From Tubulanus polymorphus (taxonomy: Eukaryota > Animalia > Nemertea): 64,000 bases of DNA. The stretch spans positions 3,062,175-3,126,174 of the forward strand of contig NC_134032.1 of the NCBI RefSeq assembly GCF_964204645.1, given 5' to 3'. The notes beneath the pieces were generated by a model. The model made no database searches. It was not told the DNA's origin and saw only the letters and a program-made list of their open reading frames with translations. Below are positions 1 through 64,000 of this stretch, one piece after another (position 1 is the stretch's first letter; the number at the start of each line of letters is the position of its first letter). The position numbers were made by a program, and so were the translations under genes.

Positions 1-200
1 TGCTAAGTGCCATGATAATTTCGACTGGTAATCTAACAACCAACGTGACCCGCCTGTTCAAGTGAGTGTCACTTGAAATAGTATTTTTACATTTATTCTA
101 ACGGGTATATGGATTCTTTCTAGAAGGCTACTTCATAATATTTTGATAGACTGTTCCCATTAGTAAAACAGCTGATAGTCTTTATCATGATTTCAGTTTA

Positions 201-1864: not shown

Positions 1865-1945
1865 AGTAATTAGAAGATGGCGTTTTCAGGCCAGAGTACT
1901 AGAGTACTAGACACCACTCATCACCACAAGTAATTTTTTTTTCCT
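1865..1945 (+). repeat. Left terminal inverted repeat of the Polinton
   Basis: agtaattagaagatggcgttttcaggccagagtactagagtactagacaccactcatcaccacaagtaatttttttttcct is the near-perfect reverse complement of 18369-18448 (a few substitutions, one T-run length difference). Confidence 0.95.
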
Positions 1946-1979
1946 ACTCATCACCACAAGTAATTTGTTTTCCTTATAA

Positions 1980-2306
1980 ATGGGAGATAGAAAAGCATTC
2001 TTAGCAACAATAAATAACAGAATAAAACCAGCAAAAAAACAATTTGAAATAAAAAAGTTAGTTGATGTTACAAAAGAAATTGAACATAAAATATTGAAAT
2101 TAGAAAAGATAAAAACTAAATATGGAGAGAAAGTATCAGCTAATTTAAGCTACTGTAATGTTAGTACATCACGAGAATTTAAAGTATTTTTACCCGATAA
2201 ATGGGTTTCATTGAGTATGGAGGAATTGAAAGATTTAGTAGGAATTAAAATAATATATCATGGGAAAAATGAAGACGGTCATCATGATTTAGAAATTGTT
2301 GATTAA
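1980..2306 (+). CDS. Polinton small hypothetical protein (108 aa)
   Basis: Intact ORF with TAAATG start, directly after a tandem pair of the ACTCATCACCACAAGTAATTT motif at the left TIR. Confidence 0.75.
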   Translation: MGDRKAFLATINNRIKPAKKQFEIKKLVDVTKEIEHKILKLEKIKTKYGEKVSANLSYCNVSTSREFKVFLPDKWVSLSMEELKDLVGIKIIYHGKNEDGHHDLEIVD

Positions 2307-2809: not shown

Positions 2810-3347
2810 TTATTATAGAAATATTTTTACTTTCAATATTTGAAAATGTTATAACTCCAGTTGATAATAATGTCATAAATCCACCTAATTGAAATGATAA
2901 ATATCCAATCCATTTATTTAATTCAGTCATAACTAAATAATCATTTTTTAAATCGGAATATAATCTATTTTCATCTTCAATTGGTAGTATATAATTACAT
3001 AATTTACTATAACCTTTTACTACATTTTCTGATATCGCGTCATTAATTCTAGCTGTTCTCGCGGCTTCATAAATCTTAAATAATCTAATAATTTCATCTG
3101 ATTTCATTATGTCTAATTCATTATAAGTTAAATTTTTACCAACAAAATTTTTACATTTTCCAGATGCTATTAATATTTCTAATTGATGTTTGCAATAAAG
3201 ATAATATTCATAATTATTATTTGTTGTAACATTATTTAAAGCACCATCATCTGGAATTAATTTTGTTTCTGTTATTCCTAAATCATCTAAAGTTTTTTCA
3301 ATTGGAACATCACCATTTTTAGATTTTATTTTCTTTTCACCCACCAT
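2757..3347 (-). CDS. Polinton hypothetical protein (196 aa) with C-terminal hydrophobic segment
   Basis: Intact ORF; TAATTTTTTT..TAAATG start context; WIGYLSFQLGGFMTLLSTGVITF hydrophobic stretch. Confidence 0.8.
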   Translation of the reverse strand: MVGEKKIKSKNGDVPIEKTLDDLGITETKLIPDDGALNNVTTNNNYEYYLYCKHQLEILIASGKCKNFVGKNLTYNELDIMKSDEIIRLFKIYEAARTARINDAISENVVKGYSKLCNYILPIEDENRLYSDLKNDYLVMTELNKWIGYLSFQLGGFMTLLSTGVITFSNIESKNISIINERGERSEEKTENSETN

Positions 3348-3380
3348 TTATATAACAAAAAAATTAATTGTGTGATGTTG

Positions 3381-3735
3381 CAACTAGAATTTAACTAGAA
3401 TGTAACTAGAATTCAACTAGATTAACAAGCTAGTTGAAATATTGTTGTTTTTGTTTATTTCTTGTTAAATCTAGTTGATTTTTTGTTTCAACTATTAACA
3501 ACTAGAATTCAACTAGAATGTAACTAGAATGTAACTAGATTAACAAGCTAGTTGAAATATTGTTGTTTTTGTTTATTTCTTGTTAAATCTAGTTGATTTT
3601 TGTTTCAACTACTAACAACTAGAATTCAACTAGAATTAAAATAGATTAACAAGCTAGTTAAAATATTGTTAAATCTATTTGATTTTTGTTACAACTACCA
3701 ATAACTAGAATTCAACTAGATTAACAAACTAATTG
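3381..3735. repeat. Polinton-internal non-coding tandem array (about three ~120-bp units built from ~11-bp AACTAGAAT subunits)
   Basis: Recurrent caactagaatt/aactagaatgt and caactagattaacaagctagttgaaatattgtt blocks between the 196-aa gene and the ATPase. Confidence 0.85.
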
Positions 3736-3738
3736 AAT

Positions 3739-4347
3739 TTAAATAAATTCATATTTAAATGGGTGTTGTAATCTAAATAGTAATTTTGATCTTTTAATAT
3801 TTTTCAACTTATCCATATATTCATTATGTAAATCATGTGGAATAATATCATTTTCCTCAAGTGCATTTTTCATCGATTTTCTATCTTTATTGTAGAATAA
3901 AACTAGAAATCTAATGTTTTCTCTAAAATCTTTAACAATTGAATTATATTTTTGATTTAAAACCCAAGTTGTTATCCCAAAATGTCTCCCAGAGAAAGCT
4001 AAATAGCATAACTCACTTTCTCTAACTTTTGAATCATGTAGATTAGCACAATCATCTATAATGAATAATGTATTTGATCCTTTATAAATATCAATTGCTA
4101 TTTTTATACAATTATCTAAATTTTCTTTTACTGTTTTAGGATCTAATATAATAAATTTATTATTCCTAGTAATATTTTTATCATAAGTTTGATTAAATTC
4201 ATATGTTGGACAAAATAATACTATATTATCAAAATAGTTTTCATAAACAGTTTCTAATAAATGTAATATAAAATAAGTTTTTCCACAATTTGTTACACCA
4301 GAAATTAACATATTATGAGGCTCAAATATAAATAATTCCTTATTCAT
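3739..4347 (-). CDS. A32-like (FtsK/HerA superfamily) virion DNA-packaging ATPase
   Basis: Walker A ISGVTNCGKT, Walker B LFIIDD, arginine-finger region SGRHFGIT followed by LNQ. Confidence 0.92.
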   Translation of the reverse strand: MNKELFIFEPHNMLISGVTNCGKTYFILHLLETVYENYFDNIVLFCPTYEFNQTYDKNITRNNKFIILDPKTVKENLDNCIKIAIDIYKGSNTLFIIDDCANLHDSKVRESELCYLAFSGRHFGITTWVLNQKYNSIVKDFRENIRFLVLFYNKDRKSMKNALEENDIIPHDLHNEYMDKLKNIKRSKLLFRLQHPFKYEFI

Positions 4348-5475
4348 TTATATATTTTTAATTTTACTTGATAATATCCATTCATTGAATTTATCTGGCC
4401 ATCCAACCCATTTTACTAAAGAATATTTTTTTCTTTTAACAGTTTTTGTTTTTAATACTTTTTCAATTTTATATTCTTGTTCTAGATTTTCAGTAGTTAA
4501 ACTTAATTCTTCTTCGTAAAAATATCCATCAACTTCTTCACCATCTAAATCTTCTAATTTATAGACATATGGTTTTGTTGTTATTACCTTTTTTATTTTA
4601 TATATTTCTCTAGTAAAATTTCGATCGTATCCTTTATCAAATATCTTTTTATACTTAGAAATTCTAACATTTTGACCAACTTTAAATTTAGGTTCACCAA
4701 AATCATCAACAAGAAATGCTCCATATAAATTATTCCAAACAATTTCAGCATTTTCAGATTTTCTAGCATCAATAGGTTTCATTCCAATAGAAGAATGATA
4801 AGAATTATTATATCCTTCTATCAATTTTGGTAAAACATCAATCCATTTAAAAGTATTATTTGCTGTAAAATATTTCCACATTCTTGTTCTTAATGTTCTA
4901 TTAAATCGTTCAACAACTGCTGCTTTTTTATCTGATTTTGTTGAAAAATATTTAATATTATGATTATCTAAGAGTTCATGAACAAGTGAATTATCAAACT
5001 CTTTTCCATCATCAAATTGAATTTTTTCTGGTTTTAGTTTACCACCTGAAAGAAATTTTCTTAAAACATTTGATGTTTGTACAGCATCTTTTCTATAAAG
5101 TGGGAAGCTCCATACATAACGACTAAAAATATCAATTATATTCAATAACCACCAATAATCATCATTATCTTTCTTAACATTTTTCATATCAATTAAATCT
5201 CCTTGCCACTGTTGATCTACATAACTTACCATAGTTTTACGAGTTTTATATTTTCTAACAATTTTTTTAGGTTTTGTATATGTTGGTTGTTCTAACATAA
5301 ATTCATTTATATCTTTATATTTAACTAAATTTTGTGGGATTATCTTATCTAATTTATCTTGTTTTACTTTACGCCATATATTTTTAGTAGAAGAATAAGC
5401 AACCGAACTCTCAGGGTTGTAATATAAATTTCTTAAATATTGTTCTTTAGTATTAGGAGTTTTTTTACCTCCCAT
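4348..5475 (-). CDS. Retroviral-like (rve) DDE integrase with C-terminal chromodomain
   Basis: WQGDLIDM, IDIFSRYVW, IQFDDGKEF and VVERFNRTL catalytic blocks; C-terminal YKIEKVLK..YSLVKWVGWPDKFNEWI chromodomain; ORF intact. Confidence 0.96.
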   Translation of the reverse strand: MGGKKTPNTKEQYLRNLYYNPESSVAYSSTKNIWRKVKQDKLDKIIPQNLVKYKDINEFMLEQPTYTKPKKIVRKYKTRKTMVSYVDQQWQGDLIDMKNVKKDNDDYWWLLNIIDIFSRYVWSFPLYRKDAVQTSNVLRKFLSGGKLKPEKIQFDDGKEFDNSLVHELLDNHNIKYFSTKSDKKAAVVERFNRTLRTRMWKYFTANNTFKWIDVLPKLIEGYNNSYHSSIGMKPIDARKSENAEIVWNNLYGAFLVDDFGEPKFKVGQNVRISKYKKIFDKGYDRNFTREIYKIKKVITTKPYVYKLEDLDGEEVDGYFYEEELSLTTENLEQEYKIEKVLKTKTVKRKKYSLVKWVGWPDKFNEWILSSKIKNI

Positions 5476-5505: not shown

Positions 5506-6754
5506 CTAATATTGAATACTATCTAATTGTGAATTTACAATATTTAATTGCGCATCAGATATAATATAAATGTGGATTTTAAAATTTTTGATTCCTTTAT
5601 TCTTTTTCATGAATAATTGTATTCCATCTTTAGTGTTCTGTAGTTTTTTTCCAGAACCATGTAATGAATTATCTTCTGTTGTTCTAAAATCTAACTATAA
5701 TGCATATTTATTACCGGTATAATAATCAATTTGATTAATATTACAATTTTCAAATGATTTTACTTTTTCATTCATAAAATGTTTTCTAATTTCTGGCCAT
5801 TGATCAATCATTCTCATTCCTTGACAAAATATTTTATTCGCTATTCCTTCGATAGTTATTTCTACTTTTGTTATTTCAGGATTATAATAATTGTCAACAT
5901 TTATTGCACCATTAGTATACGTTCCAATGGTAAAAAATATTAATATACCTTTAATAGATCTTCTAGGAAAGTTAATATTCTCATTTATTATTTCATCATT
6001 TGCATTAATAGTTACAGTTTTAAATTTATCAATATAATCATATAATAATGAAAACCCTTGATTGTATTGAGTTTGAATTGTGCTAGCAATATTTTCATTA
6101 GTTATTGTGTTATATTCTAAACATATATTCGATAATTTATAACTCATATCTTTAACAACGCTAGATAATACAATTTCATTTACAGGAGCAAATGTTATCT
6201 CAAATATAATATCTTCTTGAATTGCGTATTTATATAAAGGGGCATTATTATTTATCAATTCAAAATCTAATGGAATTTTATATTTGCTTCCATAAATCTT
6301 TTTAATCAAATTATCTACGTCATTATTTACTATTGCGTTATTGGCTTCAGATCTTAATTTATTTTTGGTTTTCTGATTGGATGCCTTGAAATATCATATT
6401 ATTTCTATTTTCTTTAGTTAACCATAAATCTTTATAATGCATAAATAAATTATAATCATCTAATGAGAAAACTGTTTCTGGACCAATCTTTATTGTTAAC
6501 TTTTTAATCAAATATCTTCCAACATTATCAACGACATAATTATTATTATTACCGATTACTTTTATATCGGCTGATAAATAAATACTATTTGGAACATAAA
6601 AAGTATTTTGTGTTAATCTAGGAATTCTAACGTATAAAGTTTCATCGGGATTAATATTTGAAGGGTTATGAGTAATTATATGATGTGATCTTTCTGCTTT
6701 AATAGCATTAGATATTCTAGAAATCTTAGAAGGACTTATATAACTCCCACTCAT
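5506..6754 (-). pseudogene. Major capsid protein (double jelly-roll type), disrupted
   Basis: ORFs 6359-6754 and 5695-6309 join by removing one A at ~6362-6366 (QSENQ-NKLRSEANN..LIKKIYG). In-frame TAG at 5695-5697 sits where Trp is expected (KYAL*LDFRTTEDNSLHGSG); reading continues to TAG at 5506. About 415 codons in total; motifs (THNPS, YKLSNICLEY, FPRRSIKGIL) recalled from Polinton MCPs. Confidence 0.75.
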
Positions 6755-6774
6755 TTATTTAACAAAAAAATTAA

Positions 6775-8211
6775 TCATTTATTTTTTATCATGTTTACTA
6801 ACCCAAAAATAATAGCACTTACAACTGTAATTAAAAATAAAATAATATGTTCAGCAGCAAAGTTAAGAATATTACCTGCAGATTTTAAAACAAAACCAAC
6901 AATTGATGCAATAACTCCTGGCAATGCTGCAGCAGATTTTTTAGATAGTTCCCATAAATATTTTGCTAATTTCTTTAAACCATCTTTAACTTTATCTTGT
7001 ATAGAATTATTGCCTGGAGGTTTATCTGGTTTATTAGGAGTGGGAGTAGGAGTAGATTTTAAAGCATTTGATATAGCTAAACCTATTGTTGTAAATAACA
7101 TAGTAACAGCTGTTAGAATTGAAAGAATTGTTATTCCTTCTAATTTAAATAATAACTTTATCCTATCTTTTAATGATATTTCAGAATTTGGTTTAATCAA
7201 CAAATCTTTAAAAATAACTTTTAATCTATTAATATTATAATCATATGATTTTAACAATAATTTAATTTCTTCTTTCTGTACTTCTAAATTATCTTTTAAA
7301 TTACTAATTTCTTTTTCTAAACGTAATTCTTTTTGCCTATATTCTATTTCATCAATTACTTGATGATCTAAATCAGACTTTAATTGTTCTATTTCTTTAT
7401 TTTTATCAGTTAATTCTTTTTCCAAATACGTAATTTTTTGATCTCTTATACTTTTATTATGCGCAATTTTATCAGATGCAAGTCTTATATTAATAATTTC
7501 TCTAATTGCTTTATCAGAAAATATATCTAAATCTTCTAATTATTGATCTGTTGCATCAAGTAATCCATTCGGTAAAAGTTTTTCAATTGGAACTTTATTT
7601 GATTTAAGTTTACTAGTTTTGGAAGTTTTATTCTGTTCAGAAGTTTTTTCTGTTTCTGATTTCTTTTTGATTATTTCAAATAATTCATTAATTCTTTGTT
7701 TAAATACATCTATATTATCATCTATTTCTTTTTGTGTAACATCAGTTATTTCATTACTATTACTTATTATTTTAATTCTATCTGGTTTTAATTTTTCTAA
7801 AGTTGATTCTGATAATATTTTATTTTTATTATTTTTATAAGTGATATCAATATAATAATCACCTTTCAAACGATAATAACATTTACCATTATCTAAAAAT
7901 TTTAATTGATCTGCTAAAAGTCCAACGTCTTCATCATTTATGTTAAGTTTAGATTTTTCAATTAAATCTTCTAATTTAGGTATTTTGTTTAAATTATCTA
8001 AATCTTGTTTTACTAAATCTGGGTCTAAATTTTCAGGATTTAATTGTGATTCAGCATTTTTAATATAATCAGGCATATTTAAATTATTGTTATATTCTGG
8101 TTCATTACCATCATTAAAACTTGTTTCATCAAAATCAGGTGGTTGTTCATCAGTTATACCAGGTTCATTAAAAGGATCCATTCCAATATCTTCTACACCT
8201 TCTACATCCAT
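6775..8211 (-). pseudogene. Acidic/coiled-coil protein with C-terminal membrane segments, interrupted by one nonsense codon
   Basis: ORFs 7540-8211 and 6775-7425 are in the same frame, separated only by TAA at 7540-7542 (DATDQ*LEDLDIFSDK...). The C-terminus has hydrophobic helices flanking a PTPTPNKPDKPP linker. Confidence 0.75.
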
Positions 8212-8228
8212 TTATATAATAAAAAAAA

Positions 8229-9644
8229 TTAAAATTTAAAATATAATATTCCTCCGATTACAATTCCTATACAAGTTATAGCTAATTTAGTATTTTCATG
8301 GGATTTATTATCATCATTTAGTTTAATTACATCATGTTGAATATCACCGTGTGGGTGCCATATGGCACCATTATCAGTTCTATTATTTTCTGTAGTATTG
8401 TAATCTTTTATTTTAGAATCATTATTTAATTTAATATTCTTAGTTTTAGTTTCTGTTGATTGAATGTGTTTTTAATTTTTTTCACCTTCGATTAATTTTG
8501 GAGCAGTAATAATCTTTTTATTTATATCATTTAACCCAAATGAATTATTTATTGTTGCAGTTTTAATTAGATTATTATAACCAATTATATTTCCCATCTT
8601 TAATACTAAATCATTAGAAATAATTAATAGATTAGGGCCTATACAATAATTAAGTCTTACATGAGATTTATCTAAATAATTTTGATATCTTATAATGTTT
8701 TCTGGAATCGATCTATTTTTATCATTATGAATTGAATCTTCAAATAAAACTTTAAATTGTTTTTGTGTATCGAATGATGTATTCAAATTTCCAATTATCG
8801 GTGATCTTGTTTCAACTTGTGATCCTAGAATACAAATCAAATAAGTTCTAATAGATTGATTTATTCTTTCTATACCTGATTTAGTAAAACCTTCACTATT
8901 TTCTAAAATAAAATAAACCCAACCATTATTGTTTTCTTGTTTTAAATTATCATAAAATTTTGGTAATTTATTGAAATTTAATGTTTCTAAATCCTTTGTT
9001 TCTATTTGACCATAACCTAATTTTTTATTATTGATATTATAAAAACTATTAGATGGTATGGGAAGTGCACAATATTCTGCAATCTTTCTAGGGCAAGGAA
9101 GTGATCTTATTGTTCCAATTTTTGTTCTAAAATCAGAATTATTTATATCTATATTAAATTCATTGCAAATTTTATAAAACTTAGATAGATTAATATTATT
9201 ATCTAATTCTTTAAAATATCTAGATCCTGGTAAAGCACACTCTAATTCATTTAATATTATTCTGATTTGAAAGTATGTATGAAATCTAAATAAACTTTGA
9301 ATTAGTTTATATTTAGAATTATTCAAATGATTATTCCAACTAATTCCACATCCTGTTGTTGCACAATAAACAGCAAAATTTAATTGGTTCTGCCAATACT
9401 TCATATTAGATTTTAATAACCATTGTTTTTCATCTTTCAATTTTTTAAAATTAATTAAATATACATGAAATATATTTTCCATCTTTGCATTAAAATTATT
9501 AGTTTCAGTAACATAAATTTCTAAATCAATTAATGAATTTAAAACTTCATTTCTATATGTAATATCTTTATTAAAATCTATTGCTGGAATATTATATTTA
9601 ATTGATTTATTATATCGGAAAGTTTTTGGAAAACTATCTACCAT
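8229..9644 (-). pseudogene. Polinton conserved hypothetical protein with C-terminal membrane anchor, one premature stop
   Basis: 390-aa ORF (YWQNQLNFAVYCATTGCGIS) stops at TAA 8472-8474, but the same frame stays open to ...HENTKLAITCIGIVIGGILYFKF* at 8229. Confidence 0.7.
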
Positions 9645-9660
9645 TTATATAACTAAAAAA

Positions 9661-10093
9661 TTAATAATTTATTAATTCTTTTAATAATTTATCTTGTTCT
9701 TCAACTGTTATATGACCATTTAAACTTATTATATAATCTAGTGTGTTCTTTAATTTATTAATTTCTTTTATATTAGATTTTATTTTTTCTTTATTACTTT
9801 TTATATTTAATTTTGAACTTATACCAGTTAAAACACTTGAACTTAATCCTAACACACCAATTGATATAGCTAGGTGTTAATGGACTGAATATTGCTAGAA
9901 ATGTTATTACAGAACTAATTGTAACCGAACCACTTATAATCAAATAATATATAATTTTACTTTTTAAATATTTTTTCTTTTTTATCTTTAAGTCACTTTC
10001 AAATTCTAATATTTGTTTTTCTAGATATATTTTTAATTTAGTTTTATTTATATCATGAGGAATAATATCAATACTATCAACTTTATCTTCCAT
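9661..10093 (-). pseudogene. Polinton small membrane protein, frameshifted
   Basis: Overlapping ORFs 9794-10093 (TAAATG start, hydrophobic IIYYLIISGSVTISSVITFLAIF) and 9661-9855 read as one gene with a frameshift near 9870. Confidence 0.65.
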
Positions 10094-10112
10094 TTATTTA
10101 GAATAAAAATTA

Positions 10113-10535
10113 CTAATTAGTAAACTTATAAGCAACAAATATAACAATAACAGTTCCACCTAAAATCCATATTATTTCATATTTCTGTTGTTCTTTACTT
10201 GGGGTATAATTATCTGATAATTTAGGTTTGTATAGATGTAATTTTTCTTTATTGGTTACTGCGTTATATAAACTCATTGCATCATCAACTGATTGAAAAT
10301 CTCTATGTGAAATCTTCTGATCATATAATTCTTTATTGATGTAATCCATATAGTTTTGTCTCTTTTCTCTATATTCTTCTGCAGCTTTATTGTATTTCTC
10401 TAACGATAAGTTATGTCTTCTTTGTTCTCCTAATGAACTATTTTTATCAATATGTTTAAATAAATATCCACCACCAGTAAATGCTAAAGCGTTAACAATT
10501 GCTGATCCTATAATAGTTATAATTGCAGAAGCCAT
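10113..10535 (-). CDS. Polinton small protein (140 aa) with hydrophobic N- and C-termini
   Basis: Intact ORF; MASAIITIIGSAIVNALAFTGGGYLF and IIWILGGTVIVIFVAYKF; motif-preceded start. Confidence 0.85.
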   Translation of the reverse strand: MASAIITIIGSAIVNALAFTGGGYLFKHIDKNSSLGEQRRHNLSLEKYNKAAEEYREKRQNYMDYINKELYDQKISHRDFQSVDDAMSLYNAVTNKEKLHLYKPKLSDNYTPSKEQQKYEIIWILGGTVIVIFVAYKFTN

Positions 10536-10560
10536 TTATTTAGCAAAAAAAATTATGTAT

Positions 10561-10782
10561 TTATATAGGAGGAATATATTTTTGTTTTTCCAAATAATCA
10601 ATAGTTAAATTAGATAAAGTAACTGCTAATGTTAACTTTAAAATATCATTTATATCAAATCTATCAACATTAACACTTCCCATTTTGAATACTTTTTTTA
10701 ATACCATTGAATAACCAACAGTTCCAACTGATAGTAATGCGCCATTATATAATCCAGTTATTATCCACTTATTATCACTCAT
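10561..10782 (-). CDS. Polinton small hydrophobic protein (73 aa)
   Basis: Intact ORF, TAATTTTTTTGATAAATAAATG start context. Confidence 0.8.
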   Translation of the reverse strand: MSDNKWIITGLYNGALLSVGTVGYSMVLKKVFKMGSVNVDRFDINDILKLTLAVTLSNLTIDYLEKQKYIPPI

Positions 10783-11130
10783 TTATTTATCAAAAAAATT
10801 ACTATCATCAAAATATTTAGTTAACTTAGTTTCAACATTTATTTTATTACTAGTTTCATTTGTATATATTTCAATTATTATTTTCTTAATATCATCGATG
10901 ATAAAATCTTCATCTAATTCATAAAATCTTAAAGATTCTCTAATTAAATTAGTAATCTTTTCTACATTTAAAGTTTCTTTATCAATTGTTGTTTCATACT
11001 CAAATGTTGTTTCATTAGAAAATACAATATTTTTGATATGTGTTATTACATCATTAATGTTAAATTTCATTTCTTTCTCACGTTTAAAATCAAATCCAAA
11101 ACATATACTCGGTCCAACAGTTATATTCAT
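10783..11130 (-). CDS. Polinton hypothetical protein (115 aa)
   Basis: Intact ORF, TAATTTTTTTGATATATAAATG start; its stop abuts the next ATG. Confidence 0.75.
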   Translation of the reverse strand: MNITVGPSICFGFDFKREKEMKFNINDVITHIKNIVFSNETTFEYETTIDKETLNVEKITNLIRESLRFYELDEDFIIDDIKKIIIEIYTNETSNKINVETKLTKYFDDSNFFDK

Positions 11131-11146
11131 TTATATATCAAAAAAA

Positions 11147-11946
11147 TTACTCTCTACATCTTATAACTAATTCATATATCACAGGAAAGTTGTTCAAATC
11201 AATTAAATAACCATTATGATTTCTTATTTCTAATTTAAAATTGTTAAATTGAGGAATACAAGGTTTAAAATCACATTCAGCTAAATTATAATTTATTTGC
11301 GTTCCAAATTGTTTAACGTTCTTCGATGGTAAAATATTTAATATACTAGAATTACATGTTGTATCTTTAGTTGCTTCAAATGTTTTTGTAGGATCGATTA
11401 AATTGCAATAAATATAAAAGTGTGTAAAAGGTATTATATTTGAGTTACCGTGTATGTTTACACCAATAAAATCATTTGGAGTAATTCCTAACAGTTTAGC
11501 AAAAGGTTTTTTTACCATGTAATTATGTCTTCTTGTCATCAATGGATTAGATTTAACAAGTTTAATAAGTTCATCATCAAACTTTATTTTAATTTTATTA
11601 GAGCTCTCACTTTTTATGAATTTAATATTAAATTTGGAATTACCATTACCTAATCTAATCCGAGCTTTTCTATTAATTTCTTGCGCTAATGTTTCTAAAT
11701 TATATAATCCTGGTGTAAGCATAAGTTGAATCCATTTTTTTCAAGTTTATCAAAAATAAGAAGGCTTCTATGTTCATCAGTTTTATCTGATATATTATAA
11801 AATGAGTTACATAAACTTATATTTACTAATTTTAAATCTACACAATTCTTGAATTCTCTATCTAATTGAACTAATAAATTATGTGATTTATAATTTGTAA
11901 GTCTTCTTGAATCAACAAATATTCTGTATTCTTTTAATTCTACCAT
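11147..11946 (-). pseudogene. Minor capsid (penton-like, single jelly-roll) protein, frameshifted
   Basis: ORFs 11695-11946 and 11147-11722 overlap and join near 11720-11745. C-terminal FYIYCNLID..SILNILP..FKLEIRNHNGYLIDLNNFPVIYELVI is typical of Polinton penton proteins. Confidence 0.65.
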
Positions 11947-11968: not shown

Positions 11969-11997
11969 CACTCATCACCACAAGTAATTTTTTTCCC
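11969..11997 (+). promoter_or_regulatory. Internal copy of the TIR-derived motif CACTCATCACCACAAGTAATTTTTTTCC in a divergent intergenic region
   Basis: Near-identical to sequence within both TIRs; lies 6 nt upstream of the ATG at 12004. The penton gene starts divergently at 11946. Confidence 0.75.
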
Positions 11998-12003
11998 TAA
12001 TTA

Positions 12004-13305
12004 ATGGACGAGAAGATAGCATGTGAAATTTGTGGTGAACTTCTAAGAAAAAGTAATATGGCTCGACATATGAAAAAACATAATGAAAATTATAAACCCC
12101 CTAAACTAAACTGTCCAAAATGTAATAAATTATTCTCAAGAAATTATGTTAAAAAACATTCAGAGAAGTGTAGAATTAATAACGCAACAGCTAATGTTGA
12201 TAGTAATTCTGCTGAAGTTGAACCTGAAGTTATTTGGAAAAGACCTTTTTTATTTTATGACAAGAATAATGTAAAGAATAATTTCTGCGAGCCTTGTAGA
12301 ATGAAATACATCCCTGATAATAAAGAAGATTGGGAGAATCATCAATTTCGTAAAGCACATATAGATAAAATTTCTAATAAATTTGAAACTGAATTCAATG
12401 AAAGAAAAAATAATTTATTAGAAAAAATAAAATATGAGAAAACGTTACCAGATAATGAAGAAACAGTTGAAAAGTTAGAAAAACAATATAATGAATTAAC
12501 AAGAAAAACATATTATTGTAAATATTGTAAATTGATTATTACAACAAGTAATTCAAATCTACATAATAGAACAATAAAACATAAAGAAAACGTAAGAAAA
12601 TACCAAGAGCTTAATGAAGATCTATTACCAATAAATTATAAACGAAAATGTCCACAATGTAGTTATGCGACCTTAAGACAAGAAGGTACTGTGTTATTTT
12701 GTGTTGATTGTGGATGGCAAAAGAATTTATGGGATGAAGAAAAAACTAGAAATTTTCTTATAGATCCAAAATTAAATTATCTTGATGAAATTTTTAAAAT
12801 ATGTTCTATAGAAGATCATACACCAGAATATATGCAATGGCTTGAAAAAATGAAAATAATAGAAAATAAAAATGGTGGAATAACTAAAAAAGATATTATA
12901 AAAACAATTATTCCACCAACATTTAACACAAAACAAAAGAAAATGTATTTATATTTATTATTTAACGATTATTATAAAAAACCTAAATTAACAGAAGAAG
13001 ATATGAAAAATATAAAAAAAATATTTAAACAAATATTAATGTATCATTTGGAAAATAGAATAACAGATTCAATAAATTATGAATTCTTTTTAAATAAGAT
13101 TGTAAATTATTTAAACCTAGATATTATAATTCCATTTGATGAATTAACAAACAAAAAGAAACAAAGAGAGCGAGATGAAATGTGGAACAAGATAGAACTT
13201 TATTCAAATGAGAAAAATGGAATGGAAGAAGAACCTGAACAATTAAATGAAAATGAAGAAGCTAATAGTGATTTCGAGTATGATGATATTGATTTTATGT
13301 TTTAA
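12004..13305 (+). CDS. Multi-zinc-finger protein with putative VLTF3 (poxvirus A2)-like late transcription factor domain
   Basis: N-terminal C2H2-type fingers (CEIC..HMKKH, CPKC, CEPC, CKYC..HNRTIKH). Zinc ribbon CPQC-x12-CVDCG is followed by a helical domain ending SINYEFFLNKIVNYLNLD..KKQRERDEMWNKI, resembling the VLTF3 C-terminus. The ORF is well supported; the VLTF3 call is by eye. Confidence 0.65.
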   Translation: MDEKIACEICGELLRKSNMARHMKKHNENYKPPKLNCPKCNKLFSRNYVKKHSEKCRINNATANVDSNSAEVEPEVIWKRPFLFYDKNNVKNNFCEPCRMKYIPDNKEDWENHQFRKAHIDKISNKFETEFNERKNNLLEKIKYEKTLPDNEETVEKLEKQYNELTRKTYYCKYCKLIITTSNSNLHNRTIKHKENVRKYQELNEDLLPINYKRKCPQCSYATLRQEGTVLFCVDCGWQKNLWDEEKTRNFLIDPKLNYLDEIFKICSIEDHTPEYMQWLEKMKIIENKNGGITKKDIIKTIIPPTFNTKQKKMYLYLLFNDYYKKPKLTEEDMKNIKKIFKQILMYHLENRITDSINYEFFLNKIVNYLNLDIIIPFDELTNKKKQRERDEMWNKIELYSNEKNGMEEEPEQLNENEEANSDFEYDDIDFMF

Positions 13306-16300
13306 TGGCCATAAGGTAATGTTTTTATACCATCATCTGAAATATGCCTTTTATTATCAAATGGATTTAAACTAGTTTTTTCAACTTCATTAATGTACAT
13401 CTCGTGATCTTCTGATCTTAAACAATTCATTTTGTGTTTCATTACAATTGAGTTATATAAACATTTTATATAATCTTGAAATTCTATATGTTTATCAACC
13501 ACATGTTTTGTTATTCCTTTTAACTTTTTAGCTTCATGATCTTTTGTTCTGTAACTATACATTTTACTTCTTATCCCAACAAATTCAATCATTTCATCAC
13601 CTCCTAATTCATCTTTAAACTTACCAGGAATCTTTTTATTATCATTACTAAACAATTCATGATCTTTGGGGTAATTGCTAAAGTCGAAATAATGTTTCAA
13701 TGTTTTTAAGTCTTTTGTTATATCATTTGTCTTGATTTTTAGTATGTAGGCGTCAGTATTTTTTTGGATTAATGGGAACCCAGAATTGAATGTTCCATCA
13801 TCTGTTGATAAATCATAAACATAGTCAGTTGGGTTATATATTTCAAATAAATCCTTAACTTCTTCTGTTAACTCATTTTCTACATGGCTTAAATTAAAAC
13901 AATTTGGTTTAGATTTATTCAATCCAATATTCATATTGAAGCCTAATGAATTACATAATATATTTAATCCTGATATAGCAACTTTTCCTTTTTGAGCTAA
14001 AGATATTGTTTTGCGGTTTTTGAAACTTTTAGTACCATCTGCTGCATAGAATCCAATGAAGAACCATTTTCTTAAATTATTTTTTGCATTTAATACATAA
14101 TCTGGTACTATCTTTTCTTTTGTTGAAGTATTACTTTTCACTATTGCATGAATATAGAATTCATCATTATATTCTATAGCAAAATCTTTAGGATTATTCA
14201 CAAGTATTCTATAAACTGCTGATGATTTCATAACATCTATGATTTTGAATGTTTTATTTGGATAAACTTCTTCACAGAATTTCTTAATTCTTTCTAATAA
14301 TTTTAAGTCTTGATTGCATAAATACCAACAATATTTAGTTCCACTAACATAATTATACACACCTGCTGAACCATCACCCATGAAAAATCCTTTGATAAAA
14401 TATTCTTTTTCTTCCAATGTTTCTCGTTCTATATTATAAATATTATCAATTATTTCATCAAATGACATATGATTCATTCTTGGGAAAAATCTTTTATGTA
14501 ATAATTCATCTCCAATTTTTATATCAGTTGGTTTTATTTCATCACCATTTCGTTTAATTAAACTATGATCTTCTGTAACATCTACAAATCCTAATTTAGT
14601 TCTAACTCTATAGATTTTCTTATTTGTTTTATGTCTAATAATATTATTTAATTTTTTCCATCCATTTCTTGTCCAAACATCCATTAATCCATTTATTTGT
14701 ATTAATTCTTTTTCACCATATGAAATATAACATTCATTTTGTTTTGGAATTATTTCTGAAATTCTTCTTACCAATATTTTATTATTACATTTTAATAATA
14801 TTGGGGTGTCAGCTGTTACAGAATCGAAGTATAGAATTTCTATGTGTTTTTCCCCAAAAAGTGGTTGTAATACATTATAATAGAATTCATACATTAATAA
14901 TTTTGATACTTCTAAAACGGTTGAACCTATGAAAATGGGTTTATTAAATTTCATTGATGTTCTTTTTAATTTTACCGCGGTCAAATAATCCTCAAATCTT
15001 TTATTTTGTAAATGTCTGGGGCTTGATTGTAAATGCCTTAATCTTTTATAATCATTTACTAACTCAATGTCGTTTCTATTACGAATATTCTCACAAGTTT
15101 TTCCATAAAAACTATTGTTCATTAATTTGAAGAAATCTTTTTCGAAATCAGTTTTTGATATGGTTCTCTGTTGAGTATTGAAATCTATATATTTTTCTAA
15201 CCACTTCGATTGATTAAATTCAATATATCTATGTACTTTCTTTAATTTCATTCCTTGTTTTAGATAAAATTTTAACATTCTATAATGAACAATATAATTA
15301 TATTTATTATTTTGAGTAAGTATTAATTTTTCTGTAAAAACATGATCTTTCGGTTTTATTTTCTTCTGGTATTCACTTAAATAACTATCATCTACAGTTA
15401 AATGTTCTGGGCAATAAGGTAAGTTTCTTGTTTTAAACTTTATATTTTCAGGGTATTCTAAATCAACTACAAAGAAATAACCAATTGGTGCTTCATCTTT
15501 TAAACTCGCAATTGCGTTTTCCCAATCAGTTTTATCATCATTTTCAACTTCTGTTAATATAAAATTTTTATATGGTTGAGGTTGCATCATTGCCCAACCA
15601 TATAAATTATTGGCATCAATATATAATAATTTATATTCATCATTTGCTTTAAAATACCTATCTCCCATAACACCACTAATTCCACCTCTAATTGATTTTT
15701 CAAATAATAAAACCATGTCTGGTTCTTTTAATAAATCTAATTCTACATTTGTATATTTTAAACCACATTGCCAGGTTAAACCAGGACTAGAGTAGCAATA
15801 ACAAGGATCAACATTAAAATGGTTTAGATTAACTTCTCTAAACTTTTCAAATATGTCAGCCAATATCATAACATCTGATTTTAAATATAAATCAACTAAT
15901 TCACCATGATTTTTCATCTTAAAATGGTTCCAAATATTTAATGTTCTATCAAAAACTTCGTCTTTCACATACTCCTCTTTTAATTTATCATAAAATTGAT
16001 CTTTTAATAATTACATTAAAATCATCATGTGTTTTATAAAATGAATAAGGAATTGCGCCTTTATATCTCAATAATTTAAAATCTTGGTCATTTGGATAAT
16101 AATATCGAGTTATAACAAAATCATTATCAACTAAACTTTTTGATAAATTATCTAATGAACTTGCTAGAAATCTATAAGAATCTAAAAATCTAATGCAACC
16201 AAATTGAAATGAAATATAATTTTCAGTTGTTTTAGCTAATAGTTTAAAATCATATTTTCTTACATTTGCTTCATTCATAGCATTATATTCTTCTATTTCT

Positions 16301-18363
16301 TGATTAATTGCGCCCAATTTTCCCGATAATTGTTTTATAAATAGATGGGTATCATATCCTGATAAATTATGAAATAATATTGGTACGAAATTTACTTTTT
16401 TAGCTTGTAAATTGCAATCTTCATGAGCAGCTCCACGATATTTTGAATTTAAATGATCATGATCTCTAACTCTTTTATCAAATGAATAAAAACGTTTTTC
16501 ACAATAACAACAATGAGTTGCATAATTAAAATCAATTTCATCTTCTTTTGTCATAACTATTCTTTTATTTTTGTTTAATAATTTTGCAAAATCACTTTCT
16601 AATTCAATAATTTTATCACAAAAATCATTAACTACATTTTCACCTCTAAAAGAAATATATTGACTTTCATATAATTCGGGATAATTTGATTTTATATAAA
16701 TTCCATAAGCAGCAGCTCTTTGATGAACTTTTTTAATTGTATTTATAATTGGTGGGTCTTGTATTGCGTCTTCATTTAATTCATTTCCTTTATCCATTGA
16801 TTTTAATAATTGCTTTTTGTTATATATTTCTTTTCTATCTTGATCAGTTAATTCTTTATTCAACGATTCAAAATCCCCATAAATTACAAATGGAACAATA
16901 TTTTTAAATTTATGATTAGTAAATTTCAATTTATAATCTTTTTCTGTTGGCATTATTAATTTACAAAAATCTTTATTATCACATAATTCTTTATGTTTTA
17001 GTAATGTATTCTCAGTTCTAAATTTAGATAAACATTTTCTACATAGATAAATTTTATGGCTGTTAAAATCACTTTCTGTTCTAAAGAATAAATCAATTTG
17101 TTTTAACCACATATAATGTTCATTTTCATCTTTTTTGTAATATAACAAATCTATAGCATTTTCATCATCATAATATTCTGTTAAATATAAAGCTTCCAAT
17201 GTATAATCTTTAATATTTTCACCTTTTGTCTTTGGTAATTGCATTAATTCGAATACATTTATTTTTAAATTATTAACTTTTTCTATTTTAGGAATCATTT
17301 TTATAGTTACTGGATATTGATCAATTTTATATAATGTTTCATATTTCCGGTAATCTGTTATTCTATAAACATGTTCTTCTGTTGGATGTAAGCAACTAAT
17401 AATTGACCATAGAAAACATTTATTATCTTCATTTTGAATATTTATTACTGCTTTTGTTATAAACGGTAATTTGATATAACTTGATGCTTTCATATCTTTT
17501 TCTGTTATAAAGTTTGAATCATTTTTAAACATTTTATTACTTTTTGATGTTTTATTTCTTTTTGTATTATAAACATTTAAATCTAAATATATAATTTCAT
17601 ACAATGTTAAGCCAGAACCCTCAAAATATCTTTCTTCAATATGACGTTTAAATTCATTTAATATTTTTTCTAACTTCTCTTTTATTTGTGTTTTTGAAAT
17701 TATTTCTTCAGAGTGTGTTTGAATATTATAATTCATTTTTTCTTCTGACTTTATAAAACTTACTTTCCCAGAGATACTAATTTTTGGATATTCAACATCT
17801 GTTATCAAATCTAGTAATTTTTCTATTATTTCATTAAATTTACTATAATCTTCTATTGTTGTACCTTTAAAGAATCTAAATATAATAGCTGCAGGACCAA
17901 TTTTACTATGTAATGTTTCTAAGATTTCAATTGTATCTTTGATTTCTAGTGAATCAATATAATTTCTAACATTTTCCATGTAAGGTTTATTTGAAATGGA
18001 TTTAGTTTTTGAAGTTGGTTTTTTTACTTTTTGAGTTTTATCGTCAAAATAATCTTTTCTTAAAACATTATTACTCAAATTTTGGTGGTGTTTTTGTGAT
18101 TCGAGATGTCTATTATAATTCCTTTTTACTATAAATTCATTACAAACTTCACATTTTATTTCATCCACATTCATATTTTCTAATCGTTCTTTTCTTTCAT
18201 TGGAATTTTCTGGAGTTTCAAAATCTATAACATTTTTTATATGATTTGAAGATTTTTCATGTTTAGATTTATTAGATTTATCGATGTATTTTTTACAATA
18301 TTGACAATAATATTGATTTTTATTGACATTATTGTTTTCTAGTTGGTGTTCATTCTCCCCCAT
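13302..18363 (-). pseudogene. polB: Protein-primed family B DNA polymerase (pPolB) with N-terminal Zn fingers, inserted endonuclease VII-like domain and an intein; one frameshift
   Basis: Exo I VIYGDFES, Exo II FHNLSGYDTH, RFLDSYRFL, Exo III YLKSDVMILADIFE, motif A YIDANNLYGWAM, motif B KLMNNSFYGKT, motif C YFD/TDA split by the intein, KIPGKFKDE, SKMYS, KLKGI. ORFs 15988-18363 and 13302-15968 are one gene: the downstream frame extends upstream as KDQFYDKLKEEYVKDEVF (the 15968 start is a GTG), placing the frameshift at ~16005-16015. Confidence 0.93.
13758..14822 (-). mobile_element. Intein (355 aa) with LAGLIDADG homing endonuclease in pPolB motif C
   Basis: Block A SVTADTPILL, block B VDVTEDHSL (TxxH), LAGLIDADG blocks FIKGFFMGDGS and FFIGFYAADGT, block F DYVYDLSTDDGTF, block G LIQKN followed by +1 Thr. 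Excision restores YFDTDA. Confidence 0.95.
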
Positions 18364-18368
18364 TTATT

Positions 18369-18448
18369 AGGAAAAAAAATTACTTGTGGTGATGAGTGGT
18401 GTCTCGTACTCTCGTACTCTGATCTGAAAACGCCATCTTCTAATTACT
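18369..18448 (-). repeat. Right terminal inverted repeat of the Polinton
   Basis: aggaaaaaaaattacttgtggtgatgagtggtgtctcgtactctcgtactctgatctgaaaacgccatcttctaattact mirrors 1865-1945. Confidence 0.95.
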
Positions 18449-21092: not shown

Positions 21093-26477
<5,385 letters not shown>

Positions 26478-32173: not shown

Positions 32174-34887
32174 GTTCGCGTTTTCCCCGCTGTCGTTATT
32201 TGGAGGGGCAGCACCAGACAGTCAAGATCTGAGGCGGATGTGAGAACGAGTTTCATAGTGAATCACTGTTCACAACATTTAACATGAATTCTACCTAGAT
32301 CAGAGCGAAATAAAATAAAGTGAATTAATTAACACACGAGATCCTGATATTAGAGTTAATTTAAATACATTTGAAGGATTGAAGTTGCGTTTACTGATCT
32401 ACGGGAAAAGATATGATCGAAACCAGTAGAACAAAACTCGCGGCTCGAAAGTAAGGACCGGCGACCAGTCTAATTCTATAGAGACCGGTAACCAGTCTAG
32501 AACTTCATTGGATGGGTCAGGCAACCAGTCGGAAATGGATGGCGCCGGTTTGTTTTGTTGCTGTGTCGCTGCGCATAAAATCATGATTTTCAGATAAAAA
32601 CTGCCGACTAAAGACCGCTCGCTTCGGCGTAAGACAAGGAACAAGTCGATGCAACAGCGACATGTAAAAACATCAGTATTTGCCCCGTCAATTTTGCAAA
32701 AAAGACGCTTTTTATCCACTATTTTAATGTCCAGTGTAGTCTGTGTTCAAATCGCCACGTGTACATATAGACTATTCATAGAACTGTCAGAGCCGCTGAC
32801 TCCTGTTGAATCCGCTAGGTGTCACTAGTAATATTGCGTCATCGTTTAGTGATGATAAAATAAACGATAGATTTTGATTTTCTAGACTAATTGCTGGTCT
32901 CTGTTCTAGCCTCTGTAAAAAATTCAGATAGCTCCAATCTTACCGAAATAAAACTAGTCAGAACAGGGTGGGCTCGAATAACGATATGCTTTTCACATTT
33001 TTGAATTATCTTCGGTAGTTTTTCGAGAAATCGCGATCTGAAGTTTGAAAATTTCGGCGAAAAAAAGTGTCGACTTCACGTTTCAATACAATGATCTAAA
33101 GAAAGGCAATATTTCATGGAAACAAACTTCAATATCTCCTGAACTCGTGGAGATAGACTAAAAATGTAAAGATCATTACACTCGTAGCACTCGCGGCTAA
33201 GTTGAGGTTAGATCGCAAATTGATTTAAATTCCGATGATAAATACCATTTTATCTGTTATCAATTTCATAAAGAGAATAGCTGAAAATCAAACTTGGCCT
33301 CTTAAATTCAAAATAGCATCTTCATGACATTAATCAGTTTAGAAACATAAACCTGGCAATAATAATACTAATAATAATAACTAAATGATAATGCATTTGA
33401 TTTGTTTTAAGCTTAGTTTCAACAATGATTTATATTCCCTTCAAAGTTGCTATTTTTGGAAAATTCCCCTCGTGAGGCTCACTGTCCCATCACGTGCCTC
33501 TAGTTTTTCCTCAATTCATCCCATTAGACGCCTCTTTCTGCAGCAGCCGTTTTACTGGCCTTCACATTGCCGAAAATTACAAAATAAAATCATGCTGTCT
33601 TCAGTATTTAGATTTTAAGATACTAAACCTTCTGATTGTCGATATGTGATCGTCCATTAATACAGGGTCTTTAGGTAGTAATTCATCCCGGTCAATTGCC
33701 TTTCTTATTAAAACAAGATTCCCCTTACTTTCGAATGAAATTACATGAATCGGTTTTTTTAGATGAGGCTAAACAAAAATGATAGCACCTTAATATTTCT
33801 CCGCAGCGGTCGGGTCATTTTTGTAAAATATGTAAACAGTTCATTTCTATAGCGGCCGGATGGTAAAATCACAATTTCAAAAAAAAAGTAATGTACAGGG
33901 TTGATAGGCGGCCGGCCGGGTCAACTTATCTGCTCAGCAGAGTGGAGAAACAAGGTATCAATTTTCTTTTTAGCCTAACTTCAAACATTTTTTACAATTC
34001 TAGTTTATTTATAATTTCAGTTAAGAATCATCTGACAACCGACCACAGCCAAATCATGTAAATGAACCAATTCCACATTCGTCTGATGTTTTGATAATCC
34101 AATTCCACAATCATCTGACAATCGACCACAGCAAAAGGATGTCGCTGCTGATCCTATTACACTTCTGATACAGCAGACAAATGATCTCAATACTGTTCAC
34201 AATCGGCAAGCAATACAGAATGATCATCCTCCTCGGGGTGCTTCAGTTTAAAAGTTTTCTGACGGAGACACAGACAATAGCGGTGTAAGTGGTGAGTAAC
34301 TTGTTCATATTCCAAGGTTCAGAATGCTGGAAACGGCTTCTAGCGACTGAAAAGGCTTTTAAAATTCGAAAAAATTCCCAGACCCTCTTAGGGGCTTCGA
34401 GGCTCCCGTGTGCCTATGAAAAATTGCCTTTCTTTCTGGGATTTGAACCTGCCCTGGTTCCAGGAAAGCCGGAGACGTCAGTGTGATTGGTTCTAAACGA
34501 TCTATTCGAATGTTATTCTTTTCACTGGCTTCGATAAGATATAATTCTTCACAAATCAGACTAAGGTTAACTACAGTAGCTCTCTAACTCAGCTCCTAAC
34601 AGAGCGTATTGATTGATTGATAGTAAAATAAATCTAAACAGTTGAACTAAACTGATTCATTAAACACGGATTTGTTTCAAGGAACCGGGAAAGTAGGGCG
34701 TTCTTCTCGAGTTGTCTAATACACACTACTCAGGTCTGGTATCGCGAGTTGATGAGAATGTGTAATAATCGAGTTCATGTTTAACCTTGCAGGAAGAAAT
34801 TGATCTCGAGATGCGGAGCCTGCTGACGTGTGGCGTGTGAGAGGTAACTTACAGGATCTGTGACTCTCGGACAATTTGAATCAGTTC

Positions 34888-35170
34888 ATTTTGATTTCTA
34901 TTTGACTATCGTCTGCTAATTTTGAGTTCTATTAGACTGTCGTCTGCTAATTTTGATTTCTATTAGACTGTCGTCTGCTAATTTTGATTTCTATTTGACT
35001 GTCATCTGCTAATTTTGAGTTCTATTAGACTGTCATCTGCTAATTTTGAGTTCTATTGGACTGTCATCTGCTAATTTTGAGTTCTATTAGACTGTCGTCT
35101 GCTAATTTTGAGTTCTATTGGACTGTCGTCTGCTAATTTTGAGTTCTATTTGACTGTCGTCTGCTAATAA
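34888..35170. repeat. 31-bp minisatellite
   Basis: Tandem ttttgagttctattagactgtcgtctgctaa; shorter copies at ~37386, ~59785 and ~62190 mark the unit junctions. Confidence 0.9.
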
Positions 35171-35239
35171 TCGAGCTGGTTTTTGCTTTTTATTTATAGG
35201 TCGTATCGAGCCTGATGCTGGGGTATCGGGAGACGCAAT

Positions 35240-35560
35240 ATATAAGTCCTGAATGAAAGATGTTATGTCGGATACAGGAACTGATACTTCTAGATGTGGG
35301 AGTCATTCAACTCGGGCAGCGGTTGCTTCAGCTGTTGAAGCAGCTCGACGCGAACACTTTCAAATGGTCGTACTGCGAAGACACGTTTGCACAGTTTTAT
35401 AATAAGCCGATGATCGGAACTTCTGAGAATACTCTGGCGAGGATCTGCACAACTGTAGTCGGTACGGGCTTTTTATTCATCGACGAAATGAATTTTTCAT
35501 TCGAAATCTCGTAGAATTGTGGAAATGAGTAAAATTATACAATTAAACAAGACTTACCCG
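35240..35560 (+). mobile_element. DIRS-like tyrosine recombinase 3' relic (also at ~37515, ~60010, ~62315)
   Basis: Alternative frame reads MKDVMSDTGTDTSRCGSHSTRAAVASAVEAAR (HSTR motif); after a frameshift, WSYCEDTFAQFYNKP (catalytic Tyr region). Confidence 0.7.
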
Positions 35561-38140: not shown

Positions 38141-38335
38141 GCGACGCAGTGGCCGAGTTGGTTTAAGCCGCCGGTCACTGGTCTCGTCAATCCAGGGTTT
38201 ATGGGTTCAAACCCCGGTGGCGACAGAGTTTATCGGTCGAAGGTTCTTCTCCGGTCTGTCCCCCATCGGGAGAAAGAAACGTCGAACCCGCTTTTAATGC
38301 CCTGCGTGGCGCTTAGCGGGTTGAAAAAAAGATTT
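38141..38335 (+). mobile_element. tRNA-derived SINE (copies at ~35855 truncated, 60637, 62942)
   Basis: Pol III box A TGGCCGAGTTGG and box B GGTTCAAACCC, no intact cloverleaf, followed by an unrelated body and A-rich tail. Confidence 0.7.
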
Positions 38336-63500: not shown

Positions 63501-64000
63501 AAATATTTGTAAACAAATCGCAAGAAATTCAAATTTTATCAGTAAACGCCAATAAAATTATAATGTTATGAGTGAACGGAATAGGTAAAATAATGTATTA
63601 GGAATTAGGAACTTTTCTCGATAAAATATAACAAAGTTGTTAATGATACAAACATCCACTATTTACAATATATCAACTATTAGAGGGATCTATAAACATC
63701 TAATCCTATTTTGATGAATTTATTAAACTGGTTTGTAGGATGTTTTGAGATATGTATGCGTTATCCAGCTAGTGCTGCCGTCTACAGTCAATTCAACTCA
63801 CTAAATGATCCACCGTTTGAGAACACTCATAAAAATACACTGCAAGTGACAACTTCACAGTAAGATTTACAGACACTAGAAAGAGACTAGAAACAAAGTG
63901 AGAAAACTGAACTACAGAATGATATGAAATGAGCCACGTTATGACTACATGAAATTGGAACTACTGTCAATCCTGGAACAACCTCGACCAGATAATCCTT
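57568..64000 (+). repeat. Segmental duplication copy B (runs off window end)
   Basis: Colinear with 32520 onward, including the MITE, 31-bp minisatellite, DIRS relic, SINE and two ~2.3-kb units (~59900-62190, ~62190-end). Confidence 0.9.

Follow-up and report, generated by a model that had tools for sequence, protein, structure and literature searches.

By what machinery animal Polintons are transcribed, and whether a helper virus is required, are questions that can be tested where a late transcription factor and a countable promoter motif occur in one 16-kb unit. Such a unit lies in a 64,000-nucleotide stretch of the genome of the nemertean Tubulanus polymorphus (contig NC_134032.1, positions 3,062,175 to 3,126,174; this whole stretch is called the window, and all coordinates refer to it). 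The original prediction had read the plus-strand gene at 12004..13305 as a Polinton-encoded zinc-finger protein with a VLTF3-like late transcription factor domain, by which the element would provide its own specificity factor for a helper virus's machinery at TAAATG promoters. VLTF3 belongs to the core genes of large DNA viruses, and a fingered variant with target promoters of its own would help to show the role of VLTF3 in promoter choice.

The gene encodes 433 amino acids without an internal stop and lies tail-to-tail with pPolB. As had been claimed, it is intact and the only large plus-strand gene of the element, the other plus-strand frames being a 108-aa ORF (1980-2306) and a 149-aa frame opposite a minus-strand gene. 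Four N-terminal Cys/His fingers (12022..12582, plus strand) occupy aa 7-26 (C2H2), 37-56 (CCHC), and 95-119 and 172-193 (both with U1/matrin-like spacing), and the fourth matches zf-U1 with an E value of 1e-6. They are followed by a C4 zinc ribbon, CPQC..CVDC (12649..12711, plus strand; aa 216-236), whose cysteines align with those of the entomopoxvirus VLTF3 ribbon, by a helical C-terminal domain and by an acidic tail with 12 D/E within the last 28 residues. The predicted order of fingers, ribbon and helical domain is thus present, as are all the peptides quoted in its support. Both entomopoxvirus-type VLTF3s that we checked are without the four fingers.

On profile evidence, this protein is a divergent VLTF3 with four added zinc fingers. 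Searched whole against Pfam it matched zinc fingers only, whereas C-terminal fragments, picked after the whole protein had missed, matched Pox_VLTF3 (PF04947) at 26.7 and 28.4 bits (E 5.2e-6 and 1.6e-6), a thin margin over the curated cut-off of 25. The match spans 12976..13194 on the plus strand (aa 325-397, profile positions 83-160 of 168) and is extended by HHalign to aa 262-400. Neither the A2L ribbon family (PF08792) nor NCBIfam gave a match to the 433-aa protein, and the C-terminal domains of two orthologs, P0001 and P0002, did not match Pfam Pox_VLTF3 when searched alone. In support of the assignment, HHalign aligned the protein and the two orthologs with an entomopoxvirus-only alignment at 96.2% probability (E 2.4e-9, 134 columns), and a profile of five entomopoxvirus-type VLTF3s scored the window protein at 28.7 bits, P0001 at 24.9 and P0002 at 23.5, against 7.4 bits for the best of the control sequences (300 shuffles and the reversed sequence). 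Pox_VLTF3 clusters also came first in the ESM Atlas (0.94-0.95); these include clusters with few recorded members, mostly Preplasmiviricota, a group with VLTF3 clusters of 150-200 aa. The predicted domain, and with it the match to the Pox_VLTF3 family that it entailed, is therefore borne out by the Pfam fragments, HHalign, the entomopoxvirus profile and the ESM Atlas.

Few relatives were found. Residues 200-414 returned six matches among 1.8 billion representatives: two full-length orthologs (P0001, 47%; P0002, 39%), a shorter relative (P0003), one canonical VLTF3 (P0004) and two unrelated zinc-ribbon repeat proteins. P0004, the sole canonical VLTF3 among the six, is 60-63% identical to named entomopoxvirus VLTF-3 proteins. 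A word-index search with aa 200-420 found no homolog among 1575 candidates, a profile search found P0003 alone among 3413, and scans of viral contigs with the protein alignment, the pPolB/intein stretch, the ATPase and the pPolB alignment yielded no locus. In alignments, the window protein is 22-28% identical to entomopoxvirus-type VLTF3, with the four ribbon cysteines invariant and the C-terminal Y/L/W core kept. The divergent relatives P0001 and P0002 keep all five metal sites, and the architecture of four fingers, ribbon and helical domain is conserved across three lineages at 34-44% identity.

Structure models were of low confidence. A single-sequence AlphaFold model had a pLDDT of 39.8; a better one (pLDDT 48), built from an alignment of VLTF3s, had cowpox VLTF3 as its top BFVD match (E 1.5e-4, TM 0.36). 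In comparisons aimed at a TFIIB-like fold, with a zinc ribbon plus cyclin-fold repeats, Foldseek against the PDB returned nothing at E <= 0.001 for the low-confidence model, and VIA-align gave a best Z score of 5.0, with cyclins at Z 4.4-4.5 among unrelated helical bundles; a PDB sequence search found no solved VLTF3 structure.

The element that hosts the gene is 16.6 kb long, has 24% GC and is bounded by terminal inverted repeats (TIRs) of 77 nt that are 95% complementary (left, 1865..1941, plus strand; right, 18372..18448, minus strand). We found no target-site duplication, in that the flanks at 1865 and 18448 share no repeat. Its membership of the Polintons is indicated by the TIRs together with pPolB, an rve integrase, a packaging ATPase and a capsid gene. 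The family B DNA polymerase of pPolB type (13302..18363, minus strand) is split into two frames in this copy and carries N-terminal zinc fingers and an intein; its label derives from the Polinton context and from motifs, without a Pfam polymerase match. The integrase with chromodomain (4348..5475, minus strand; rve E 5e-10) and the A32-type packaging ATPase (3739..4347, minus strand; Pox_A32 E 8e-13) are open frames with TAAATG starts. The major capsid gene (5506..6754, minus strand), whose Capsid_N match falls below the cut-off (E 0.0013), is broken here by one frameshift and one stop. At the left end, the 108-aa ORF (1980..2306, plus strand) possibly encodes an SSB-like protein, a lead that comes from its nearest named ESM Atlas cluster, Phi29_Phage_SSB (score 0.88, family on 44% of members). 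Genes are tightly packed, with same-strand intergenic gaps of 0-30 bp in 8 of 10 cases. Neither an RNA polymerase nor any other late factor was found among the element's ORFs; an adenovirus-type cysteine protease was likewise not found among the ORFs scanned between 1865 and 18448, some of which have no assignment, and a protease-like ORF is present in many related loci.

Several further features of the window were recorded. Sequence adjoining the left TIR (about 1309-1854) combines high read depth with many loose ends, which suggests another multicopy repeat. An intein with a LAGLIDADG domain lies within the polymerase at its YFD/TD motif (about 13750-14820, minus strand); Pfam LAGLIDADG_3 (E 2e-7) and TIGR01445 (above cut-off) support it, as does Intein_splicing below its cut-off (E 3e-6). 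The polymerase of a related locus, L001, is 86% identical and has no intein, and the word 'intein' is absent from three Polinton papers that we searched. Between the ATPase and ORF196, a unit of about 110 bp occurs in three imperfect tandem copies (3381-3737). Outside the element, the window contains a host caspase-domain gene (21093-23952, plus strand; Peptidase_C14 E 9e-14) with a 34-bp minisatellite between apparent exons, and a 2.3-kb tandem-repeated unit in two places 22.5 kb apart (about 34800-39200 and 59700-64000); the caspase gene and the flanking repeats point to an animal host.

DNA reads from another sample of the species cover the VLTF3 gene about 200-255-fold, pPolB 205-330-fold and the right flank, which may itself not be single-copy, about 36-fold. 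Because its depth resembles that of pPolB and exceeds that of the flank, the VLTF3 gene is a regular member of a multicopy family. Stops and frameshifts interrupt pPolB, the capsid gene and three other genes in this copy; the integrase, ATPase and VLTF3 genes are open. Over the first 700 bases of the VLTF3 gene, sites that vary among copies are distributed 11/9/12 over the three codon positions, with no third-position excess and thus no signal of purifying selection. This count comprises 32 coding positions in 40 of 49 rows, after removal of 7 upstream or mixed-promoter rows (5 of them near the start) and 1 duplicate position. With other genes broken and no third-position excess, the open VLTF3 frame is weak evidence of function.

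The promoters of the element provide the second part of the argument. The proposed TAAATG motif is real: it is found at 12 of 14 curated gene starts and at 36 of the 628 other ATGs in the element (Fisher p 6e-13). A run of at least five T lies upstream of 9 of the 12 TAAATG starts, compared with 2 of the 36 TAAATG sites elsewhere in the element (p 6e-6). Of the 14 starts, 13 have a T ten bases before the TAAAT position. The element contains nine copies of the composite of TAAT, T-run and TAAATG; 100 resampled sequences contained 0.39 on average and never more than 3, and the other 47 kb of the window contain none. In this copy the VLTF3 start is one base off the motif; 1396 of the 1425 reads over that start fit TAAATG, although some of them stem from terminal copies of the same promoter. 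We also considered poxvirus early terminators (TTTTTNT) and set them aside as evidence: although the coding strands have few of them, the VLTF3 gene itself contains one, and their strand bias tracks A-richness.

These promoters fall into two classes. Class A, the extended form, combines the box ACTCATCACCACAAGT with a TAAT–T-run core before the VLTF3 gene (11970..12006, plus strand). Before pPolB, box and core precede TAAATG in a site that overlaps the right TIR (18361..18397, minus strand), and two boxes precede TAAATG before the 108-aa ORF, where the site overlaps the left TIR (1916..1982, plus strand). The 46-nt stretch before the VLTF3 gene is 91% complementary to that before pPolB. Exactly four occurrences of the 16-bp class A box were found, one at pPolB, two at the 108-aa ORF and one at the VLTF3 gene; related loci do not contain it at up to three mismatches, bar one three-mismatch match in an unrelated locus. 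Class B sites consist of the core only (TAAT, T-run, spacer, TAAATG) and lie on the minus strand before ORF115 (11128..11149), ORF73 (10780..10801), ORF140 (10533..10555), ORF99 (10091..10112), ORF390 (9642..9663), ORF223 (8209..8231), the major capsid gene (6752..6773) and ORF196 (3345..3366).

A T at position -3 is contrary to what is usual around eukaryotic start codons. It also differs from the purine found there in 62 of 82 ORFs of 12 related loci without the TAAATG motif. The vaccinia late promoter, as described in the accessible parts of PMC5294985 and PMC11980589, has a T-rich core, then 5-7 bp, then TAAAT(G/A) overlapping the start codon; the T ten bases upstream is conserved. This match in layout lends support to the reading that we prefer and to which we give an even chance, namely that a poxvirus-like helper provides the RNA polymerase that transcribes the element, and that the element contributes a late factor of its own. 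Class A promoters would fire first and yield the replication proteins and VLTF3. The helper polymerase would open the DNA at the TAAA initiator, and slippage there would add a 5′ poly(A) leader; the accessible text of PMC12917281 describes TAAA as being read by the polymerase itself in the intermediate initiation complex of vaccinia, and in that of PMC6211774 slippage at TAAA sites yields such leaders. The element's VLTF3 might then join the helper's other late factors, which the element is without, and be tethered by its extra fingers to element DNA or RNA, so that the capsid, ATPase and integrase genes would be favoured over the helper's own late genes. We count the T at -3 for a helper, since it is unlike both the usual eukaryotic context and the purine of the motif-less relatives; a poly(A) leader would strip this T from the mRNA, which would fit the same model. 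PLVs associated with entomopoxviruses (PMC11296320, accessible text) offer a precedent. Counted against a helper are the mriyaviruses, which lack an RNA polymerase, are probably nuclear and keep VLTF3.

A more specific version of the helper reading can be put forward tentatively, with somewhat less confidence than the reading itself. The element would be an endogenous poxvirus-type virophage of an animal, in which a VLTF3 retargeted by its fingers diverts the late initiation complex of the helper to T-run/TAAATG promoters; the cascade would have two tiers and be run from the box located in the TIRs. On the helper model, the promoters would point to a poxvirus-like virus of T. polymorphus that has yet to be seen.

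We then asked whether the motif travels with VLTF3. The relatives P0001 and P0002 both have TAAATG starts. At L001 the ortholog, too, lies tail-to-tail with pPolB, each of the two genes beginning with a T-run and TAAATG, and TAAATG is likewise present at L002. A DNA pattern scan of viral contigs returned 8 loci, with a protein match to the element in L001 and L002 only. Another of them, L007, is a giant-virus MAG contig with T-run and TAAATG at the starts of 6 of its 20 ORFs, one site matching the class B pattern exactly, and the layout therefore does not single out poxviruses.

For a survey of co-occurrence we used the 23 loci that contained a polymerase stretch, less L033, which had no pPolB match; the remaining 22 are mostly partial. 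None of them has the long VLTF3 type. Strict TAAATG starts are found at 6 of 6 ORFs in L016, 5 of 11 in L020 and 5 of 10 in L031, the last two being nearly the same element. No VLTF3 was detected in L020, L031 or L016, a 9-kb contig fragment with 38% GC and a protease-like region fused to its integrase, and whole-genome searches with three profiles gave no credible VLTF3 match in the genomes of L020 and L031. Conversely, L029 has a weakly VLTF3-like gene and yet strict TAAATG at none of its 7 starts. That gene (L029:3363-3833) and its counterpart in L027 (9668-10192) encode compact zinc-ribbon and helical proteins of 156-174 aa directly behind pPolB. Fragments of the L027 and L029 proteins gave weak, sub-cut-off Pox_VLTF3 matches (E 0.026 and 0.0023, respectively), and HHalign produced no alignment with the window VLTF3 family; judging from these comparisons, they are probably a separate VLTF3 lineage in Polintons. 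A broader start motif, TA(3-8)TG, is enriched (p < 0.01) in 8 of the 22 loci, in five of which it may be a mere A-rich start context. A VLTF3-like gene is present in 2 of these 8 loci and in none of the other 14 (Fisher p 0.12). Contigs of Polinton type from L018 to L032 lie inside genomes filed as bacterial or archaeal MAGs and are probably mis-binned eukaryotic or viral DNA.

The survey thus goes against a tight link between factor and motif. Because three loci have TAAATG starts and no detectable VLTF3, the motif appears to need no VLTF3 in cis, which argues against a strict pairing of one factor with one motif. Such independence fits a helper that supplies its own factors, with the element's VLTF3 as an accessory. 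Of the original proposal, the helper is favoured by the promoter layout, but the term 'specificity factor' for TAAATG is doubtful, because the vaccinia polymerase itself is described as reading TAAA and related Polintons have TAAATG without a detectable VLTF3.

The main rival, which we regard as possible but unlikely, is an autonomous nuclear element in which VLTF3 cooperates with host RNA polymerase II, giving the element its own switch from early to late genes, and TATATAAATG serves as a compact TATA-like or initiator element. A TATA box that abuts the ATG would place the Pol II start site inside the gene. This geometry is an obstacle to the nuclear model, as are the spacing, which is that of the vaccinia late promoter, and the T at -3 by which the element differs from its motif-less relatives; the three loci with the motif and no detectable VLTF3 are a further difficulty for such a switch. 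The model draws its main support from the mriyaviruses, which according to the accessible text of PMC11253617 retain VLTF3, have no RNA polymerase and presumably replicate in the nucleus. It would also suit the chromodomain integrase, the multicopy state of the element in chromosomal DNA and the two promoter tiers, which fit a cascade, and its DNA specificity could come from the extra fingers.

A decoy function in a helper-dependent element seems improbable. The protein would bind the helper's late factors or polymerase, block helper late transcription and so protect the host, with no activation of the element's own genes. Its low identity to entomopoxvirus-type VLTF3 and its large added N-terminal region would be in keeping with such a role, related elements with TAAATG starts apparently manage without VLTF3, and inhibition of giant viruses by PLVs appears in the accessible literature; retention of the ribbon cysteines and the Y/L/W core argues against it, as does the need of the element's structural genes for the same late machinery. 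It is similarly improbable that the gene was captured as a passenger or has taken on another role, such as RNA binding or replication, with TAAATG a translation or gene-packing signal in AT-rich DNA: the U1-type fingers do resemble the N-terminal fingers of pPolB (pairwise BLAST E 7e-8, without composition correction), the element has a low GC content, copies show no third-position excess and 2 of the 12 TAAATG starts are stop-start junctions, but the other 10 are not, the T-run stands at a fixed distance upstream that sets these starts apart from other TAAATG sites, L016 has the motif at every start despite its higher GC content, and the protein architecture is kept over three lineages.

VLTF3 in some Polintons and PLVs has already been published, and the gene alone is not new. 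In their accessible parts, PMC11131425 (which cites Krupovic and Koonin 2016) places VLTF3 in a subgroup of polintoviruses from stony corals, PMC8502044 labels it in MELD viruses, bioRxiv 10.64898/2026.06.19.733378 reports it in about 30% of two PLV clusters (Zephyrvirus VC123/VC126), and a figure legend in bioRxiv 10.1101/2022.07.28.501842 gives it for an algal PLV. The original prediction had placed VLTF3 outside the classical Polinton core genes; the surprise that this implied is smaller. The word 'promoter' is absent from the main texts of PMC11131425, PMC8502044 and bioRxiv 10.64898/2026.06.19.733378, and 'promoter', 'transcription' and 'VLTF' are absent from that of the entomopoxvirus PLV paper PMC11296320. 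Our search, which covered the main texts of openly available papers, found in print neither a description of TAAAT-type promoters in Polintons, nor the four-finger fusion, nor the pairing of VLTF3 with TAAATG promoters.

Comparison with known systems shows where the element stands. Like the VLTF3 of poxviruses and other NCLDVs (vaccinia A2; PF04947 with the A2L ribbon PF08792), its protein has a C4 ribbon followed by a helical domain; unlike them, it adds about 210 N-terminal residues with four Cys/His fingers as well as an acidic tail, and it is encoded in an element whose ORFs show no RNA polymerase or other late factor. Like the VLTF3-bearing polintoviruses and PLVs, the element is of Polinton type and has a VLTF3 homolog among its accessory genes, although the gene is merely listed there and the accessible texts do not describe a four-finger fusion. 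The likeness to the vaccinia late promoter is a sequence match, comprising TAAATG over the start codon, the T-run upstream and the T ten bases before TAAAT; the element differs in a conserved TAAT before the T-run and, at three genes, in the further 16-bp box. The yeast pGKL linear virus-like elements, whose vaccinia-like TAAAN initiator gives rise to 5′ poly(A) leaders (PMC6211774, accessible text), are also linear elements with an initiator of this type, but they are cytoplasmic and have a poxvirus-like RNA polymerase of their own, whereas the Polinton encodes an integrase and capsid proteins but no subunit of such a polymerase. Virophages and helper-dependent PLVs (Mavirus, Sputnik and PgVV-14T, and the entomopoxvirus-associated PLVs; bioRxiv 10.1101/2022.07.28.501842 and PMC11296320, accessible parts) resemble it as small integrating or satellite elements that carry the promoter motif of a large virus; their helper is known, whereas the T. 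polymorphus element has no known helper and encodes a late factor itself.
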